This document shows, in pieces, positions 12,029 through 17,955 of a stretch of 64,000 nt of DNA. The notes below the pieces were generated by a model. It saw nothing but the letters and a program-made list of their open reading frames with translations. It ran no database searches and was not told where the DNA came from. Source of the DNA: Holophagaceae bacterium. GTDB lineage: Bacteria > Acidobacteriota > Holophagae > Holophagales > Holophagaceae. The stretch's first letter is position 1. Each line of letters starts with the position of its first letter. Both the position numbers and the translations under genes were made by a program. The stretch is from the NCBI GenBank assembly GCA_021286765.1, contig JAJTBS010000004.1:27427-91426 (forward strand), written 5' to 3'.

Positions 12029-12937
12029 ATGGCCCGCCCTCCCGTCCTCCCCGGTCCCCGTCCCGCTTGGCTGAAGATCCGCGTCCCGGCCCCGGAGGTG
12101 GTGGCCGAGGTCGAAGGGCTCATCCGGGAGCAGCGCCTGGTGACGGTCTGCGAGGAGGCCCGCTGCCCCAACCTGCACGAGTGCTGGGGCATCCACCGCA
12201 CGGCCACCTTCATGCTCATGGGCGACATCTGCACGCGGCACTGCGGGTTCTGCAATGTGGGCAAGGGACGGCCTGGCGAACTGGATCCCCAGGAGCCGCA
12301 GCGGGTGGCCGAAGCCGTGGCGCGCCTGGGCCTGCGGTTCGCCGTGGTCACCTCCGTGAACCGGGATGATCTGGCGGACGGCGGCTCCGCGCACTTCGCA
12401 CAGACCATCCAGTGGATCCGCAGCCTCTCCCCGCGCAGCGGCATTGAGGTACTCATCCCGGATTTCCGCGGCGACGAAGCGGCCCTTCAGACCGTGCTGG
12501 AGGCCCGGCCGGACGTGCTGAACCACAACGTGGAGACCGTGCCCCACCTCTACAAGCGGGTGCGGCCGGACGCCGACTACCAGCAGAGCCTGGAGCTGCT
12601 GCGCCGGACGGCGGCCTGGCGGGACCGGCACGCCCCAGCCATGCGCGTGAAGAGCGGCATCATGGTGGGCCTGGGGGAAACGCCCGACCAGGTGCTTGAA
12701 CTGATGGTCGACTGGCGGAATAGCCGTGTGGACGTGGCCACCATAGGCCAATACCTCCCCCCTTCTGAACACCACCTGCCCCTGCACCGGTTCGTGGAGC
12801 CTGCCGAGTTCAAGCTGTACCGGCAGAAAGGCCTGGAGATGGGCTTCGAGCGCGTGGAATCCGCGCCCCTGGTGCGTTCCAGCTACCACGCCGGAGACGG
12901 CTACGGGGGCCCGGAGGCCCCCGCAGCCAGGTCATAA
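12029..12937 (+). CDS. lipA: Lipoyl synthase
   Basis: CEEARCPNLHEC, CTRHCGFC radical-SAM motif, NHNVETV, KSGIMVGLGE, GQYL, RSSY. Confidence 0.97.
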   Translation: MARPPVLPGPRPAWLKIRVPAPEVVAEVEGLIREQRLVTVCEEARCPNLHECWGIHRTATFMLMGDICTRHCGFCNVGKGRPGELDPQEPQRVAEAVARLGLRFAVVTSVNRDDLADGGSAHFAQTIQWIRSLSPRSGIEVLIPDFRGDEAALQTVLEARPDVLNHNVETVPHLYKRVRPDADYQQSLELLRRTAAWRDRHAPAMRVKSGIMVGLGETPDQVLELMVDWRNSRVDVATIGQYLPPSEHHLPLHRFVEPAEFKLYRQKGLEMGFERVESAPLVRSSYHAGDGYGGPEAPAARS

Positions 12938-12943
12938 AGCAGC

Positions 12944-14065
12944 CTAGGCCTTGGCGTGGATGTCCGCGCCGAGGAACTGCTGCTCGAAGGCGGTCCAGTC
13001 CAGCGGTCCGGCGCCCTGGGGGCCGTTCGCCGTGCGAAGGCGGGTGATCTCCTCCTGGTACCAGTCGATGACGGGCTTGCCGATCTTCAGCGCCGAGAGC
13101 TCCGAGGCGAGGTCGCTGGGAGTCAGCAGGCAGACCCAGCCACGGTCATAGGGGCTGCGGATGAGTTCGCCGGGATCGGTCTTCAGGCCGGCGTTGTCAT
13201 GCTCGATGCGGCCCGACAGCGGCGCGGCCACATGGACCGTTCCGGTCGCCCCCTTTAGGGTGAACAGGGTGTCGCCCGCCTTCACGGTCTTGCCACGCTC
13301 GGGCAGCTCGATTTCCTTGACGGTGCCCAGGGCCTTCCGGACGAAGTCGTCGATGCCGATGCGGACCTGGCCTTCCGGCTCGATGCGGACCCAGGCGTGG
13401 CCCGGGGAGAGGAAGGCGCCGCCCGGCACGCAGAACTCGGTGGCAGGCACCACCTCGGCCATCTCGGGCGAAACCATGCGGACATTCGGTCGGCGGGCGG
13501 CTTCGAGCCGGGCTTCGCGCTTGATCAGGAGCTTCTTGGCGAAGTCGCCGAGCTCATCGGCGGTGAAGGGCTTCTGCACGTACTCACAGGCGCCGTGCTG
13601 CAGGGTCTGGACGGCGGTCTCAATGCTGCCGTAGCCCGTGATGACGACCACGTCCACGTCGGGGCGCAGGTGCTTGACCGCCTTCACGACCTCCACGCCG
13701 TCCATGTCCGGCATCTTGAGGTCGGTAAACAGGAAGTCATAGTCATTGCGCTGCACCAGGCCCAGGGCCTCGGGGCCGTGCTCGACCGTGTCCACGCTGA
13801 AACCCTCCAGGACGAGGATGCGCCGGAAGGAGTCCAGCACCACGGCCTCATCGTCCACGGCCAGGATGCGGGCCTTGGGATTGGGGACCGCGACCCGCTT
13901 GAGGCTCTTGGCCTCGTGGGTGAAGTCCAGGCGGATGGCGGTGTTGAGGACGGCTTCACGCGCCTGGCGTTCCCGGTTCTCCCGCATTCGCCTGAGCGAG
14001 GTTCGCACCACGAAGTCGATGCCCACGAAGGCCACAAACATGAGAAGGATCAATACGGCGGTCAT
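12944..14065 (-). CDS. Membrane-anchored response regulator: TM + receiver + GcvH-like domain lacking the lipoyl lysine
   Basis: N-terminal hydrophobic helix. Intact receiver (AVDD, TDLKMP D115, ITGYG, QKPF). C-terminus HAWVR...RIGIDDF...LG...IELP..G..V.AGD.L....AAPLSG.I...N....P......PY..GW matches the GcvH fold. Confidence 0.9.
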   Translation of the reverse strand: MTAVLILLMFVAFVGIDFVVRTSLRRMRENRERQAREAVLNTAIRLDFTHEAKSLKRVAVPNPKARILAVDDEAVVLDSFRRILVLEGFSVDTVEHGPEALGLVQRNDYDFLFTDLKMPDMDGVEVVKAVKHLRPDVDVVVITGYGSIETAVQTLQHGACEYVQKPFTADELGDFAKKLLIKREARLEAARRPNVRMVSPEMAEVVPATEFCVPGGAFLSPGHAWVRIEPEGQVRIGIDDFVRKALGTVKEIELPERGKTVKAGDTLFTLKGATGTVHVAAPLSGRIEHDNAGLKTDPGELIRSPYDRGWVCLLTPSDLASELSALKIGKPVIDWYQEEITRLRTANGPQGAGPLDWTAFEQQFLGADIHAKA

Positions 14066-14074
14066 GGCGACCTC

Positions 14075-15601
14075 CTAGGTGAGGGTGGGAATGTTCGGTG
14101 ATCCGCCGTCGGCCCCGGTGGCCGTCGGCAGGCGAAGGGTGAAGCAGGTGCCCTGGCCGGGCTGGCTCTGGACCTCCAGCGAGCCACCGTGGGCCTCCAC
14201 GATGCCCCAGCTGACCGCCAGCCCCAGGCCCGTGCCGTGGTTGCCCTTGGTGGTGAAGAATGGTTCAAAGATCCGCGGCAGGTCCTCAGCGGAGATCCCC
14301 CGGCCGCTGTCCTCCAGCAGGAATTCGATGGCGCCGGGGCTGGCGGACCTGGTGATGGCCCGGATCTGGCCCCCTTCGGCTCCGATGGCATCCGCCGCGT
14401 TCAGCAGGAGGTTCACGACCACCTGCTGGATCTGGTTCGGATCCGCCTGGACCTGGGGCAGGTCTGCCGCCAGATCCAGGGACAGGTTCACCTGGTTCAG
14501 GCTGAGCTGGGTCATCACCACCGAGACAGAGCGCCGCACCACCTCGTTGAGGTCCATGGGTTTCCGGGCCGGGGCCGCGGGCCGGGCGAAGTCAAGCAGC
14601 TCGCGAATGATGCCGCGGCAGCGGACGGTCTCCCGCACGATCACATCCAGGTCCTCGCAGGCCGGCAAGTCGTGCTCCATGCGCTTGCGGAGCAGGGAGG
14701 CATAGCTCAGCACGCCGGTCAGCGGGTTGTTGATTTCATGGGCGACGCCAGCGGCCAGACGGCCGACGGAGGCCAGCTTGTCGGCCTGGGTCAGCTGGCG
14801 CTGCGTATCTGCCAGCGTCTGGGTCATCTCATTGAAGGCCTTGGCGAGTACGCCCAGCTCATGCCGCCCGCTGACGGGAATCGTGACGCCCAGGTCGCCC
14901 TCCATGACCCGGCGGGTGCCCTCGACCAGGGAGGCCACCGGGCGGACCACCAGGCGGCGGTTGAGCCACCAGAGCATGAAGCTTCCGGCCAGGATGGCCA
15001 GGGCGGCGGAGGCCGTGATGACCAGGCGGCTGTGGGCGATCTCCTGATCCACCTCCGCCAGGGAGACATTCACGTCGAGCACGCCGAGGAGGCTCTGCTT
15101 GGCGCTGTGGGCGTGGCAGGCCGCCGTGGAGCAGGACGGCGCATTCGGGATGGGGTTGATGACGCCCAGGACGCGGGTCCCGTCCGCAGCGCGGAAGGTC
15201 CTGGCCCGCGCCTGGATTCCCAGGCGCTCAAGGGGCCGGCCCTCCGCATGGCAGGCGTAGCAAGCCTCCCCCCGGGGATCCAGGCTGGTGCCGATCTCCT
15301 CGCTGGCCGAGGAGAACATGATCTTGCCCTCCTTGTTGAAGACGCGGACCTTGCGGATGCCCTCCTCATGGAGGCCACCCACATCCCGGATCTGGCGGTG
15401 CAGGTTCTCCCGCCGGTTCTCCAGCATGTCGAAGTGGGTGGCGCTCTTGATGGTCTCGCTCAGTTGATCCGCGCTGCGGGTCCGCTCCGCGAGCAGCTGC
15501 GCCGTGTGTGATCGCAGGATGGCCACGGACATGCCCCCGATCACCAGCGCCGTCGTGAGGCCGGCGCCGAGGATCAGACGAGTGCCGATGCGGGTGCGCA
15601 T
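14075..15601 (-). CDS. HAMP-domain sensor histidine kinase with heme-c-type motifs in the periplasmic domain
   Basis: Two TM helices around a sensor with CYACH (15248-15262) and CSTAACH (15113-15133); HAMP; AHEINNPL H-box, NLLLNAADA, DSGRGI, FEPFFTTK, GTGLGL. Confidence 0.93.
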   Translation of the reverse strand: MRTRIGTRLILGAGLTTALVIGGMSVAILRSHTAQLLAERTRSADQLSETIKSATHFDMLENRRENLHRQIRDVGGLHEEGIRKVRVFNKEGKIMFSSASEEIGTSLDPRGEACYACHAEGRPLERLGIQARARTFRAADGTRVLGVINPIPNAPSCSTAACHAHSAKQSLLGVLDVNVSLAEVDQEIAHSRLVITASAALAILAGSFMLWWLNRRLVVRPVASLVEGTRRVMEGDLGVTIPVSGRHELGVLAKAFNEMTQTLADTQRQLTQADKLASVGRLAAGVAHEINNPLTGVLSYASLLRKRMEHDLPACEDLDVIVRETVRCRGIIRELLDFARPAAPARKPMDLNEVVRRSVSVVMTQLSLNQVNLSLDLAADLPQVQADPNQIQQVVVNLLLNAADAIGAEGGQIRAITRSASPGAIEFLLEDSGRGISAEDLPRIFEPFFTTKGNHGTGLGLAVSWGIVEAHGGSLEVQSQPGQGTCFTLRLPTATGADGGSPNIPTLT

Positions 15602-15604
15602 GGC

Positions 15605-16771
15605 TCAGGCTCCCTCTTCCGGGATCTGGGCTTCGGTCACGGGCCCCTCGGGGAAGATGCGCAGATTGCGCACGGCGAAGGCAAATACCGCCATGCCCGT
15701 GGCCACCAGGCCCACCGAGATGATGATCTCCATGGCCGAGGGGATGTAGCGGATCCCCGAAGCGGCTTCCATGCCCGTGATGCTGACGTTCAGCCGGTTC
15801 ATGACGAAACCCATCACGGCGAGGAAGGCCCCGCCCACCAGCCAGTCAGGATGGCTGCGCAAGCGGCGGAAGGACATGAGCACCACAGGCAGGATCACGC
15901 CCATGACGAACTCCAGGAGGAACATCCGCCCTTCATACCCGAAGTCGAGGAGGGTCCCGAACGCATGGTTCCGGTAGATGGCCTGGATGCGCATGAGCCC
16001 GTAGATGCCCAGGGCCACCACCATGCCGCGGGCCAAAGGCTCCAGCAGGTCCATTTCCAGGTGCCGACCGAAGGCCCGCTTGCTGAGGTAGGACTCCAGG
16101 ACCACCATGCCGATGCCCGCACCAATGGCCGAGATGTAGAAGTGAAGCGGCAGCAGCGGGGAGTACCAGAGGGGATGCAGCTTGCTCGGAACGATCAGGT
16201 AGACCGTACCCAGGGAGGACTGGTGCAGGGTTGAGAGGATCACGCCCAGGACCACCAGCGGAGTGATGAACTTATGGATGAGCCGCGCGGGGGCATGGAG
16301 GCCAAAGCGTTCAAAGACGATGGGCGAGAATTCCAACGCCAGCACCGTGGTGTACAGCATCACGCACCAGGCCACCTCGAACATGACGGAGTGGGGATTC
16401 CAATAGACCATGGCGTGCCAGATGCGCCAGGGCTGCCCCAGATCCAGCAGCAGGGCCACGATCACGAAGCCATAGCCCAGAAAGCCCGTGAGCAGGGTGG
16501 GGCGGACGATGGGTTCGAAGCGCTTGAGGTTGAACAGGTGGACGACGGCGGTGAGGGTGAAGGCCCCCGCGGCCAGCCCCACGCCGCAGAGCAGGTCGAA
16601 GCCGATCCAGAGCCCCCAGGGGAACTGGTCGCTCAGGTTGGTCACGGCCCCAAGGCCCTTGGTGAACCTCATGACCGTGACGATGGCGAAGGCGATGAAG
16701 GTTACGGCGAATACGGCCGTCCAGAATCCGGGCCGGAACCGGCGGGTGGCAAGCGTGGCGGTGCTGTTCAT
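15605..16771 (-). CDS. NrfD/HybB-family polytopic membrane subunit
   Basis: GLG.V.NL...FPWG.WI.FDL..G, P.VRP.LL..F.GY, DLG.PW, SV.FE.A.C...Y..V.ALEF.P, LS..HQSSLG; resembles HybB. Confidence 0.9.
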   Translation of the reverse strand: MNSTATLATRRFRPGFWTAVFAVTFIAFAIVTVMRFTKGLGAVTNLSDQFPWGLWIGFDLLCGVGLAAGAFTLTAVVHLFNLKRFEPIVRPTLLTGFLGYGFVIVALLLDLGQPWRIWHAMVYWNPHSVMFEVAWCVMLYTTVLALEFSPIVFERFGLHAPARLIHKFITPLVVLGVILSTLHQSSLGTVYLIVPSKLHPLWYSPLLPLHFYISAIGAGIGMVVLESYLSKRAFGRHLEMDLLEPLARGMVVALGIYGLMRIQAIYRNHAFGTLLDFGYEGRMFLLEFVMGVILPVVLMSFRRLRSHPDWLVGGAFLAVMGFVMNRLNVSITGMEAASGIRYIPSAMEIIISVGLVATGMAVFAFAVRNLRIFPEGPVTEAQIPEEGA

Positions 16772-17520
16772 GACCGGCCTCCCCGTCCGTTGGTATGGTC
16801 TTCAGCCTTGGCCACGTCGTCGCGGCGGGCGGTGATCCAATGAACCCCGAAGAGGAACGCGCCCCAGACACCGACGAAATTGGGAATGTTGGAGAGCACC
16901 TGCCAGGTGCGCTGGGCGGGTGGGTCCGACGGAAGGTTCGTCTTCATCCCCAGCTTCTCGAAGGGGATGTTCGAGATCATCAGCACCGAGGTTCCGCCTG
17001 TTTCCGCGAGGCCGTAGATGTGATCCACATAGGCGCCGGGCTTCGACCGGATGCGGGTCCGCGCCTCCCAGATCAGGTCCTCCTTCTTGCCGAAGGTGGT
17101 GGCTTCCGCCGGGCAGGCCGCCGCGCAAGCCGTGGGCTGCCCATCCTTGACCCGGCCAGCGCACATGATGCACTTGCCGATGACGGGCACGGGGCGATCC
17201 CACTGATACTTCGGAATCTCGTAGGGGCAAGCCATCATGCAGTAGCGGCAGCCCATGCAGCGTTCGCTGTCGTAGACCACCGGACCTTCAGGCGTCTTCT
17301 TCAGCGCCGCCACCGGGCAGACGGAAGCGCAGGTCGGTACTTCGCAGTGCATGCAGAGGCGGCGGACGTTGAGCCCCTCACGTTCCTGAACCGTGGTCCA
17401 GGTGTAGGCAGTCAACACCTCCTCTACCTTGGCCGGTAGCTTGTTCTGCTCCTTGCATGCGGAGCTGCAAGCGCCGCAACCAATACAGCGCGTAGCGTCA
17501 ATGAGAAGGCCCATGCCCAT
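16768..17520 (-). CDS. HybA/FdnH-like 4x[4Fe-4S] ferredoxin subunit with C-terminal TM anchor
   Basis: Four Cys groups (CIGCGAC..AC, CMHC..P.CASVCP, CMGCRYCM.ACP, KCIMC...P.C..ACP), YG..E.GGT, C-terminal hydrophobic helix; AGGAG SD; no twin-Arg leader. Confidence 0.92.
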   Translation of the reverse strand: MGMGLLIDATRCIGCGACSSACKEQNKLPAKVEEVLTAYTWTTVQEREGLNVRRLCMHCEVPTCASVCPVAALKKTPEGPVVYDSERCMGCRYCMMACPYEIPKYQWDRPVPVIGKCIMCAGRVKDGQPTACAAACPAEATTFGKKEDLIWEARTRIRSKPGAYVDHIYGLAETGGTSVLMISNIPFEKLGMKTNLPSDPPAQRTWQVLSNIPNFVGVWGAFLFGVHWITARRDDVAKAEDHTNGRGGRS

Positions 17521-17576
17521 GGGTGCTCCTGCCTTGTCAATCGACCTCGGGAGGAATTCCCGGGGGTACGGCTGGA

Positions 17577-17605
17577 AGCATGCACTCGGGTTTTTCTATA
17601 GTCAA
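17577..17605 (-). promoter_or_regulatory. Candidate sigma70-type promoter for the hybA-like cluster
   Basis: Minus strand reads TTGACT-N17-CATGCT about 60-85 nt upstream of the start codon; the -10 match is weak. Confidence 0.3.
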
Positions 17606-17927
17606 CCCCTTGGTAGTAATTAAAAACGACATCATTGTCATTAGTAAGAATCGCGCCGGAGCGGCCTGGCAAATACTGGACTCTCAGGTATTTTCACTTT
17701 TCTTCGAATAGCCGCCTCGCAGGTCCTCTTGCTTGCTCTGATACACGCGAATTGAGGCTTTTGAGATCGACGAATTTCAAACTCATGAGACATCTTCGTC
17801 CGCAGTGGAGCATGAATCGCCGGGGTGATTTCCGATCTGGCCATCTCAAAAATGAAGCCTCTGCGGCCCTCATGGCGCTTTCAATGCGACAAGGCACCGC
17901 CGGGGTGAAACCGGATTTCTAGAAAGG

Positions 17928-17955
17928 AAAGGGCCCCGCAACCGCGGGGCCCTTT
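17928..17955 (-). terminator. Rho-independent terminator after groEL
   Basis: AAAGGGCCCCGC-aacc-GCGGGGCCCTTT perfect stem; TTTCCTTTCT follows on the minus strand. Confidence 0.85.

Follow-up and report, generated by a model that had tools for sequence, protein, structure and literature searches.

A membrane-tethered receiver-GcvH-fold protein encoded with a two-haem sensor kinase and an HmcBC-type quinone module in Holophagaceae

Known two-component control of respiration, as exemplified by ArcBA, RegBA, NarXL, and BccR, acts via transcription. The closest described relatives of the redox module considered here are the Hmc and Nhc complexes of Desulfovibrio (HmcABC(D) and NhcABCD), in which a tail-anchored 4x[4Fe-4S] subunit is paired with a cofactor-less, 10-helix quinone subunit of NrfD type; the complexes themselves contain neither a GcvH-fold subunit nor a dedicated haem kinase. 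Periplasmic haem sensors of the sCache_heme family were defined in a 2026 preprint, which describes behaviour like that of nitric oxide (NO) sensors for members fused to signalling modules (PMC12889525). The locus described here is a cluster of four genes at positions 12944-17520 of a 64,000-nucleotide stretch of DNA, referred to below as the window (contig JAJTBS010000004.1, positions 27,427 to 91,426 of the forward strand; assembly GCA_021286765.1), from a Holophagaceae bacterium, here called Geothrix. The cluster encodes an Fe-S protein, an NrfD-family membrane subunit, a two-haem sensor kinase, and a response regulator whose receiver domain is part of a protein invariably encoded with a quinone-reactive module of the membrane.

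The explanation favoured here, to which we give about an even chance, is that the kinase responds to NO or to the redox state of the periplasm by phosphorylating D115 of the tethered GcvH-fold protein, whose contact with the Fe-S/NrfD pair would modulate the quinone module directly. A broader proposal is advanced more tentatively: lysine-less tethered GcvH-fold proteins may be cytoplasmic-face regulatory subunits of an unrecognised and very widespread HmcBC-type family of Fe-S/NrfD quinone modules, phosphorylated by the two-haem kinase in many lineages, which would constitute a post-translational switch without a transcription factor. The four genes are minus-strand open reading frames (ORFs) with the coordinates and the order given in an earlier note on this DNA, and neighbouring genes are spaced by -4 (a 4-nucleotide overlap), 3, and 9 nucleotides, leaving no small ORF between them. 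The same note had described the cluster as devoid of a catalytic subunit and of a DNA-binding regulator, which is borne out; the flanks are groESL and lipA. The genes and the two haem motifs are as follows.

16768..17520, minus strand: HmcB/HybA-like 4x[4Fe-4S] protein, 250 residues (Fer4_11 72 bits; HmcB and HybA matches)
15605..16771, minus strand: HmcC/HybB-like membrane subunit of the NrfD family, 388 residues (Pfam NrfD 100 bits)
14075..15601, minus strand: sensor histidine kinase, 508 residues, with a first transmembrane helix, a periplasmic sCache-type domain, a second transmembrane helix, HAMP, HisKA, and HATPase (Pfam HAMP/HisKA/HATPase_c, AlphaFold2, Foldseek)
15248..15262, minus strand: predicted first haem-c motif of the kinase, C114-Y-A-C-H118 (alignment of 18 kinases; AlphaFold2 model)
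15113..15133, minus strand: predicted second haem-c motif of the kinase, C157-STAA-C162-H163 (Cx4CH), followed by H165 (alignment of 18 kinases)
12944..14065, minus strand: membrane-tethered response regulator, 373 residues, with a transmembrane helix, receiver (REC), GcvH fold, and C-terminal helices (Pfam, AlphaFold2, Foldseek)

The transmembrane helix of the regulator (residues 2-24) forms part of a long helix (2-43) that precedes the receiver (66-190). The receiver contains the D71/D72 acidic pocket, the acceptor D115 (nucleotides 13721-13723), T143, and K165, all of them invariant in 19 long forms of the protein. Scores against Pfam are 97 bits for Response_reg and 66 bits for GCV_H (PF01597, cut-off 22.2), while the score of 63.5 against TIGR00527 falls under that model's cut-off of 115.85. 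In the AlphaFold2 model (predicted local distance difference test, pLDDT, 81) the transmembrane and linker helix is followed by the receiver, an H-protein fold, and two C-terminal helices, which are conserved and include WYQEE at 335. The GcvH-fold domain (195-326) resembles the solved H-proteins 1ONL, 3AB9, and 3KLR with Foldseek TM scores of 0.90-0.94 at about 30% identity, and it retains the HxW, PxxG, APxSG, and GW motifs. When the regulator is aligned to the genome's own GcvH (ESVKT), the column of the lipoyl-lysine holds a threonine or a gap, and no conserved lipoyl-lysine is present in the 19 long, the 14 short, or the receiver-less forms; judged from these alignments, the fold is predicted to be incapable of carrying lipoate. 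The receiver itself is NtrC1/DctD-like, with a long alpha-5 helix, and is up to 48% identical to the receivers of the activators found in the receiver-less grade of the system (described below), against at most 38% for other Geothrix receivers. Receivers of the tethered form are 67-74% identical across phyla and are the most conserved part of the protein, a level of identity that indicates strong constraint. Those public sources that name the regulator proteins at all call them only 'response regulator' or 'CheY-like'.

The kinase has a full and invariant set of catalytic boxes, HEINNP (with H288), NLLLNA at 397, DSGRG at 431, and GTGLGL at 456, and its HisKA (58 bits) and HATPase_c (93 bits) domains both score over cut-off; the models that score best against it are those of AtoS/ZraS-type kinases. 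Between its two transmembrane helices lies a periplasmic domain with the motifs CYACH (114-118) and CSTAACH (157-163). An alignment of 18 kinases of all grades, drawn from Acidobacteriota, Calditrichota, KSB1, Gemmatimonadota, Ignavibacteria, Kryptonia, Nitrospirota, and others, shows C114, C117, H118, C157, C162, H163, and H165 to be invariant, as are T55 and M59 on the N-terminal helix. These residues suggest that haem is covalently attached at both motifs, with M59 a candidate distal ligand. The AlphaFold2 model (pLDDT 82) gives the periplasmic part as a single domain of Cache/PDC type, with the first CxxCH on a short helix (112-118) inserted between strands. A Foldseek search with this model returned WalK-type sCache domains and the Geobacter haem-c sensors GSU0935 (3B42, E 1.9e-5, 23% identity) and GSU0582 (3B47, E 3e-3). 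The kinase does not match Pfam DUF3365 at E<=0.01, and its match to PF21563 (E 0.0077, 17 bits) is under the cut-off of 27. Because a DUF3365 profile match is lacking and a second haem site is present, the sensor domain is treated here as a related two-haem variant of the sCache_heme family.

The best matches of the Fe-S protein are HmcB (248 bits) and HybA (199 bits), both under the equivalog cut-offs. Its 16 cysteines make up four [4Fe-4S] motifs (12-22, 56-68, 88-98, and 117-136), and it ends in a hydrophobic tail helix, FVGVWGAFLFGVHWI, followed by RR. At its N-terminus, which reads MGMGLLIDATRCIGC / MGMGLLIDATRC, there is neither a Tat (twin-arginine translocation) nor a Sec leader. The gene has AGGAG 5 nucleotides before its ATG and a stop codon farther upstream, which together leave no room for a Tat leader; a missed upstream start was ruled out on the grounds of the stop codon, the ribosome-binding site, and conservation in >45 loci. 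The leaderless state is kept, along with all 16 cysteines, in every Holophagaceae orthologue and paralogue, and it recurs in the paralogous type (47-50% identity), in copies of the Calditrichaceae type, and in the receiver-less grade. The Fe-S proteins of type I relatives, in contrast, carry a Tat leader (MNRRxFLK). The partner subunit scores 100 bits against Pfam NrfD (cut-off 25.8) and does not reach equivalog level with HmcC (333.8 bits, cut-off 550) or HybB (286.9, cut-off 450). Nine helices were detected, and one more in the 225-282 loop brings the number to about 10 transmembrane helices. From the bias of lysine and arginine in its loops, both termini are predicted to lie in the cytoplasm. 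Relatives in which the Fe-S partner is Tat-bearing show an identical bias, and an inverted NrfD topology was rejected on this ground as the cause of the leaderless state. D110 (LDLG) and S128 (HSVMF) are near-collinear with HybB Asp109 and Ser129, positions compared by residue number; the two HybB residues form its quinone site (PMC8076601). The arginine-rich tail after the Fe-S helix suggests that the C-terminus of the Fe-S protein is also cytoplasmic. With this orientation and an unchanged NrfD topology, the cluster domain would lie outside, with no visible export route. The conserved loss of a Tat leader from a four-cluster Fe-S protein is a separate puzzle of export or topology.

The earlier note had asked whether the four genes occur together in other genomes, and tblastn with the four cluster proteins against 79 loci encoding relatives of the regulator answers this. 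About 45 Holophagaceae loci with sufficient flanking sequence contain all four together, and versions in permuted order occur in Calditrichaceae, Spirochaetia, a betaproteobacterial metagenome-assembled genome (MAG), and Eisenbacteria; such recurrence is, from these comparisons, far beyond what chance would be expected to give. Among 201 sampled genomes of Acidobacteriota, 12 of 12 Holophagaceae have the regulator as a full-length orthologue, none of four sister-family genomes has it, and its distribution in other lineages is scattered. The genome that carries the window (3.15 Mb, 95.6% complete) contains no homologue of the cytochromes, the small peptide (tblastn), or the soluble REC-GcvH protein that belong to the fuller cassettes described below, and these were rejected as partners encoded elsewhere in it. 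Nor does it hold a [NiFe] hydrogenase large subunit above cut-off, the PF00374 match being a sub-threshold 21 bits, and a hydrogenase partner for the module was rejected on this ground.

Related arrangements were also noted in this and other genomes. A second Fe-S/NrfD pair in the same genome (C3:114845-116868, minus strand; partly in L089) includes a leaderless Fe-S protein 47% identical to that of the cluster and has no kinase, GcvH-fold gene, or cytochrome beside it; it is divergent from a gene for an activator with PAS, sigma-54 AAA, and HTH domains (C3:117196-118806, plus strand). The best NrfD match in the genome lies at C6:730883-732901 (L085), directly upstream of a receiver gene whose product is 43% identical to the receiver of a soluble REC-GcvH protein from another locus (L047). 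A groundwater Acidobacteria MAG (L006:3290-5190) has kept the groEL...lipA locus and has orthologous kinase and regulator genes at 82-86% identity, with an Fe-S/NrfD pair of the 47-49% identical paralogue type, which looks like an in-place replacement of the redox pair. In a Holophaga MAG (L045:3392-11706) two paralogous cassettes stand back to back, one of them Fe-S, NrfD, kinase, and regulator, the other, on the opposite strand, a second tethered regulator with NrfD and Fe-S proteins of the other type.

Comparison across phyla suggests that the Geothrix cluster is a Holophagaceae-specific, reduced form of a widespread cassette. The constant core of the cassette comprises an HmcB/HybA-like Fe-S protein, a 10-helix NrfD protein, a two-haem kinase of Cache type, and one or two lysine-less GcvH-fold proteins, one of them membrane-anchored, and it occurs commonly among uncultured bacteria of sediments and soils, in many phyla. 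A receiver-fused, seven-gene set consists of the kinase, a soluble REC-GcvH protein (about 265 residues), a tethered REC-GcvH protein (about 390 residues), a c7/c3-like pentahaem cytochrome with a Sec signal, an Fe-S protein with the canonical Tat leader MNRRxFLK, NrfD, and a conserved transmembrane peptide of 39-50 residues, NIFETKGLEYLLL. Among the loci of the soluble paralogue it is found in three gene orders with unrelated flanks, and its hosts include Thermoanaerobaculia, Vicinamibacteria, Cytophagia, Rhodothermales, and others. A second subtype, with a leaderless Fe-S protein, occurs in Calditrichaceae, KSB1, Gemmatimonadota, and one unclassified MAG; here NrfD is extended by an eleventh helix and, at its C-terminus, by a cytochrome domain of c7 type, with three CxxCH motifs where these were counted (L099, L120). 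Melioribacter combines a Tat-bearing Fe-S protein, NrfD, a 13-haem cytochrome, the kinase, and both regulators. None of the receiver-fused versions examined has a DNA-binding regulator in the cassette. The description of the Geothrix module as an 'orphan' in the earlier note needs revision in this light, as the related cassettes carry a pentahaem, a fused trihaem, or a 13-haem cytochrome c and resemble HmcABCD/NhcABCD; the orphan state is a derived one, and Geothrix no longer has the cytochrome, the soluble paralogue, or the small peptide of the fuller cassettes, nor a Tat leader.

The GcvH-fold output domain is far more widespread than the receiver-fused form. A search of 1.84 billion representative proteins with residues 195-373 of the regulator gave 4709 matches at E<=1e-3 and 1336 at E<=1e-10. 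Among the top matches listed, most are about 220-255 residues long, and those that were read consist of a transmembrane helix, the GcvH fold, and the C-terminal extension, with no receiver. Three proteins of the search (P0404, P0452, and P0371) illustrate other contexts: some are of about 570 residues, with the GcvH fold and extension placed after a periplasmic PBP-like domain and a transmembrane helix, and one, of 1391 residues, has three copies of the GcvH fold before an FAD-oxidase/CCG (HdrD-like) domain. For one receiver-less query protein, the GcvH gene is directly upstream of leaderless Fe-S and NrfD genes in all of the roughly 40 full-length loci, from Ignavibacteria, Kryptonia, Bacteroidota, Terriglobia/Bryobacteraceae, Eisenbacteria, Actinomycetota, and Deltaproteobacteria, with 46-53% (Fe-S) and 50-57% (NrfD) identity to the Geothrix proteins. 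Because the receiver-less loci keep this pairing, the GcvH-fold proteins belong to the Fe-S/NrfD module with or without a receiver. Downstream in three annotated loci are genes for a soluble GcvH-like protein, a two-haem HAMP kinase, an NtrC-type REC-AAA-HTH sigma-54 activator, and peptidase M54; the last of these, an archaemetzincin, ends the cassette after the activator (L183:13374-13955, L213:12808-13395). By their gene content, the receiver-fused cassettes look like the same system minus the AAA and HTH domains of the activator, with the receiver placed on the GcvH-fold proteins. In Nitrospirota/Thermodesulfovibrionia (L063, L057) a homologous two-haem kinase is found with a REC-GcvH protein of about 254 residues. 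The order by Pfam at L063:2336-13710 is two-haem kinase, REC, DRTGG, HATPase, PHP, HATPase, REC-GcvH, REC-NuoE (2Fe-2S), NuoF, and a formate-dehydrogenase-like molybdoenzyme, with no DNA-binding regulator in the annotated stretch; ORF sizes suggest the same layout at L057. The REC-NuoE protein is another example of a receiver incorporated in a subunit of a redox enzyme, in this case a soluble one.

The immediate surroundings of the Geothrix cluster are specific to its lineage. Upstream are groES and groEL with a hairpin terminator, predicted to separate the cluster from groESL, and then 460 nucleotides of intergenic DNA; downstream, lipA converges on the regulator gene, the two stop codons being 6 nucleotides apart. 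In the 79-locus comparison lipA and groEL are neighbours of the cluster only in Geothrix and its closest relatives, and a functional linkage to lipA was rejected because the adjacency is confined to this lineage. These flanking features are listed here.

17574..17639, minus strand: conserved element preceding the operon (aligned upstream regions of 12 Geothrix/Holophagaceae loci, with reading of the sequence)
17921..17952, minus strand: groEL terminator hairpin GGGCCCCGC/GCGGGGCCC with a T-run (read from the sequence; not listed by the consensus scan)
12029-12937, plus strand: lipoyl synthase gene lipA (radical SAM and LIAS_N), convergent with the regulator gene

The conserved element contains a GACAAnnnnGTC inverted repeat, TTTTTAATT, an invariant GGGTTGACTAT (with a -35-like TTGACT), and an invariant ATGCTTC, and is probably a promoter with a regulator site. 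A sigma-70 consensus scan of the upstream region found no match, and no sigma-54 -24/-12 spacing was seen by eye in the conserved element.

As envisaged here, the four genes would encode a single membrane unit composed of an HmcBC/NhcBC-type pair, the two-haem kinase, and the tethered GcvH-fold protein, the Geothrix receiver lying between the membrane helix of the regulator and its GcvH fold. The haems of the kinase may report periplasmic redox state by exchanging electrons with the cytochrome pool or the Fe-S subunit, or may bind NO. The kinase would then autophosphorylate at H288 and pass the phosphate to D115, a transfer suggested by adjacency and co-inheritance. Phosphorylation of the receiver could alter the contact of the GcvH-fold domain and C-terminal helices with the cytoplasmic face of the NrfD/Fe-S module and so tune quinone turnover or the proton path; control would be post-translational and not transcriptional. 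The earlier note had argued for an output by protein contact, for sensing of a periplasmic redox state or ligand, and for post-translational control, and the comparison supports it in part. A stand-alone GcvH protein beside Fe-S and NrfD genes is, as far as gene neighbourhoods tell, the pattern expected of a protein-contact partner of a HybAB-like pair, and the receiver-fused cassettes lack an activator; the gating or docking proposed in the note is something that we infer. The signal sensed could be NO rather than redox state. As for transcription, the receiver-fused versions are without a DNA-binding regulator, but the receiver-less versions place the kinase beside an NtrC-type sigma-54 activator; output through transcription is therefore the system's other form, and in Geothrix the kinase may also cross-talk to an orphan activator.

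A number of points weigh against this explanation. Co-transcription of the four genes is deduced from their spacing, the physical complex of the regulator with the NrfD/Fe-S pair is a prediction, and an effect of the regulator on the quinone module is presumed. The Geothrix module has no cytochrome or enzyme partner whose electron flow could be regulated. The Fe-S protein has no Tat leader and the operon has no leader-bearing partner, which weakens any assignment of the Fe-S protein to one side of the membrane and, with it, any proposed route for electrons between the quinone site and the haems of the kinase. The kinase of the receiver-less grade adjoins a sigma-54 activator and Geothrix has many NtrC-type receivers; a transcriptional branch may therefore exist. 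Finally, the REC tree unites the four cassette receiver clades weakly (support 81/85), and at such support it was not accepted as proof of descent from a cognate NtrC-type regulator.

Other explanations distribute the same parts differently. It is possible, although unlikely, that the Fe-S/NrfD pair is the input of the kinase, a dedicated redox sensor of the menaquinone pool, with the REC-GcvH protein as an output or adaptation arm acting on a target encoded elsewhere. Such a role would suit a module without a catalytic partner in a genome without a matching cytochrome or [NiFe] hydrogenase; the kinase's two haems are, besides the Fe-S protein, the only periplasmic redox centres in the Geothrix and receiver-less cassettes, and in the groundwater MAG the redox pair has been swapped for a 47-49% identical paralogue while the kinase and regulator remained orthologous at 82-86%. 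It would, however, require the leaderless Fe-S protein to reach the periplasm, for which no export route is known. A conserved target gene outside the cassette was not seen, the flanks differing by lineage, and a GcvH-fold protein accompanies Fe-S/NrfD even where it has no receiver and the output is a sigma-54 activator, an association that fits a subunit better. A distinctly improbable proposal, which concerns the signal and not the architecture, is that the kinase is an NO sensor and the cassette a nitrosative-stress or denitrification-linked response. The fold of the kinase resembles the sCache_heme proteins GSU0935 and GSU0582, its first CxxCH is on a short helix inserted in the Cache scaffold, as described for that family, and signalling-fused sCache_heme domains have NO-sensor-like properties (PMC12889525, 2026 preprint). 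The profile evidence noted above (no DUF3365 match at E<=0.01, PF21563 under cut-off at E 0.0077) does not favour it, however; the second invariant Cx4CH site and the candidate His/Met distal ligands suggest six-coordinate, electron-transfer haems, and the constant partner is a quinone module and not an NO-metabolising enzyme.

Very doubtful is the view that the tethered REC-GcvH protein serves mainly as a sink for phosphate or as a competitor, and that the kinase in fact signals through an orphan NtrC-type sigma-54 activator encoded elsewhere. In the receiver-less cassettes, members of the kinase family are encoded beside an NtrC-type activator. The highest scores are with AtoS/ZraS-type kinases for the kinase and with receivers of the NtrC family for the receiver of its regulator; Geothrix has many NtrC-like receivers, and the second Fe-S/NrfD pair adjoins a PAS sigma-54 activator. 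Against this, no receiver-fused lineage has a cassette-linked activator, the conserved upstream element has no -24/-12 motif evident by eye, and receiver identity of 67-74% across phyla is more than a sink needs. Scarcely credible is the idea that the lysine-less domain mimics apo-GcvH and regulates enzymes of lipoate or glycine-cleavage metabolism; the domain shares about 30% identity with true H-proteins and reaches TM scores of 0.90-0.94, and lipA ends 6 nucleotides from the regulator stop codon, but adjacency to lipA is absent in other Holophagaceae and in all other phyla, while Fe-S/NrfD is the invariant partner everywhere.

If direct modulation of the quinone module through the tethered GcvH-fold protein is correct, it would provide a fast, direct link from periplasmic redox or NO state to electron or proton flow. 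A further consequence would be a new signalling or adaptor role for the GcvH fold, driven here by a receiver and in other proteins by a periplasmic binding domain or by no domain at all. Geothrix species are cultured iron reducers. As they are cultured and the four-gene form is minimal, they offer a good place for the genetics and biochemistry of this idea.

The known systems differ from the Geothrix locus in several respects. Relatives with fuller cassettes share with Hmc and Nhc a multihaem periplasmic cytochrome and a one-helix peptide in the HmcD/NhcD position, whereas Geothrix has no cytochrome subunit, small peptide, HmcE/F, or Tat leader and does not reach the equivalog cut-offs. A match to a characterised Hyb or Hmc complex, which the earlier note had named as grounds for abandoning its proposal, is not what was found: the locus lacks the cytochrome, D subunit, hydrogenase, and Tat leader, and the equivalog cut-offs are not reached. 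In the passages available, the regulators of the hmc operon are given as rrf1 and rrf2, and Rrf1 homologues as the closest structural matches of a response-receiver protein described in a 2026 preprint; Rrf1/Rrf2 of D. vulgaris are set apart from the Geothrix regulator by description only, no GcvH fold being mentioned in those passages. HybA and HybB of E. coli hydrogenase-2 belong to the same two protein families (199 and 287 bits, under the equivalog cut-offs), and the Asp and Ser positions of the quinone site may be conserved in the Geothrix NrfD subunit, judged by residue number; Geothrix differs in having no [NiFe] large subunit above cut-off and no Tat leader on the Fe-S protein. The Palmer laboratory has described modules with the same pairing of a tail-anchored Fe-S protein and a HybB-like subunit, with or without c-type cytochromes (bioRxiv 10.1101/2023.11.02.564894). 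A leaderless Fe-S variant there follows a Tat-dependent [FeFe] hydrogenase, and joint export is suggested by the authors; the Geothrix operon has no Tat-bearing partner, and the available passages of that preprint do not mention kinase or GcvH-fold partners.

The sCache_heme/DUF3365-Tll0287 sensors (GSU0582 and GSU0935; 3B47 and 3B42) are like the Geothrix kinase in their periplasmic Cache fold, the haem-c motif on an inserted helix, the attached signalling module, and an N-terminal-helix methionine as candidate distal ligand. The kinase has two invariant motifs (CxxCH and Cx4CH) where they have one, and no profile membership. With GcvH (PF01597) and LbpA the regulator has in common a complete H-protein fold, from which it departs in having no conserved lipoyl-lysine and in its fusion to a transmembrane helix, a receiver, and a C-terminal helical extension. 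BccR-CbcBA of Geobacter sulfurreducens likewise joins a quinone oxidoreductase of the inner membrane, which is used according to redox potential, to a dedicated, adjoining receiver-containing regulator; functionally it parallels the receiver-less grade, in which a sigma-54 activator is encoded. CbcB, however, is a b-type cytochrome in place of NrfD/Fe-S, control is transcriptional, and no GcvH-fold protein appears in that paper. In the open-access literature no description was found of a receiver-GcvH regulator or of a GcvH-fold partner of NrfD modules, nor of any characterised system with this architecture, in agreement with the earlier note. A two-component system and an Hmc-type module are kinds already known; what would be new here is the GcvH fold as an output or adaptor domain.

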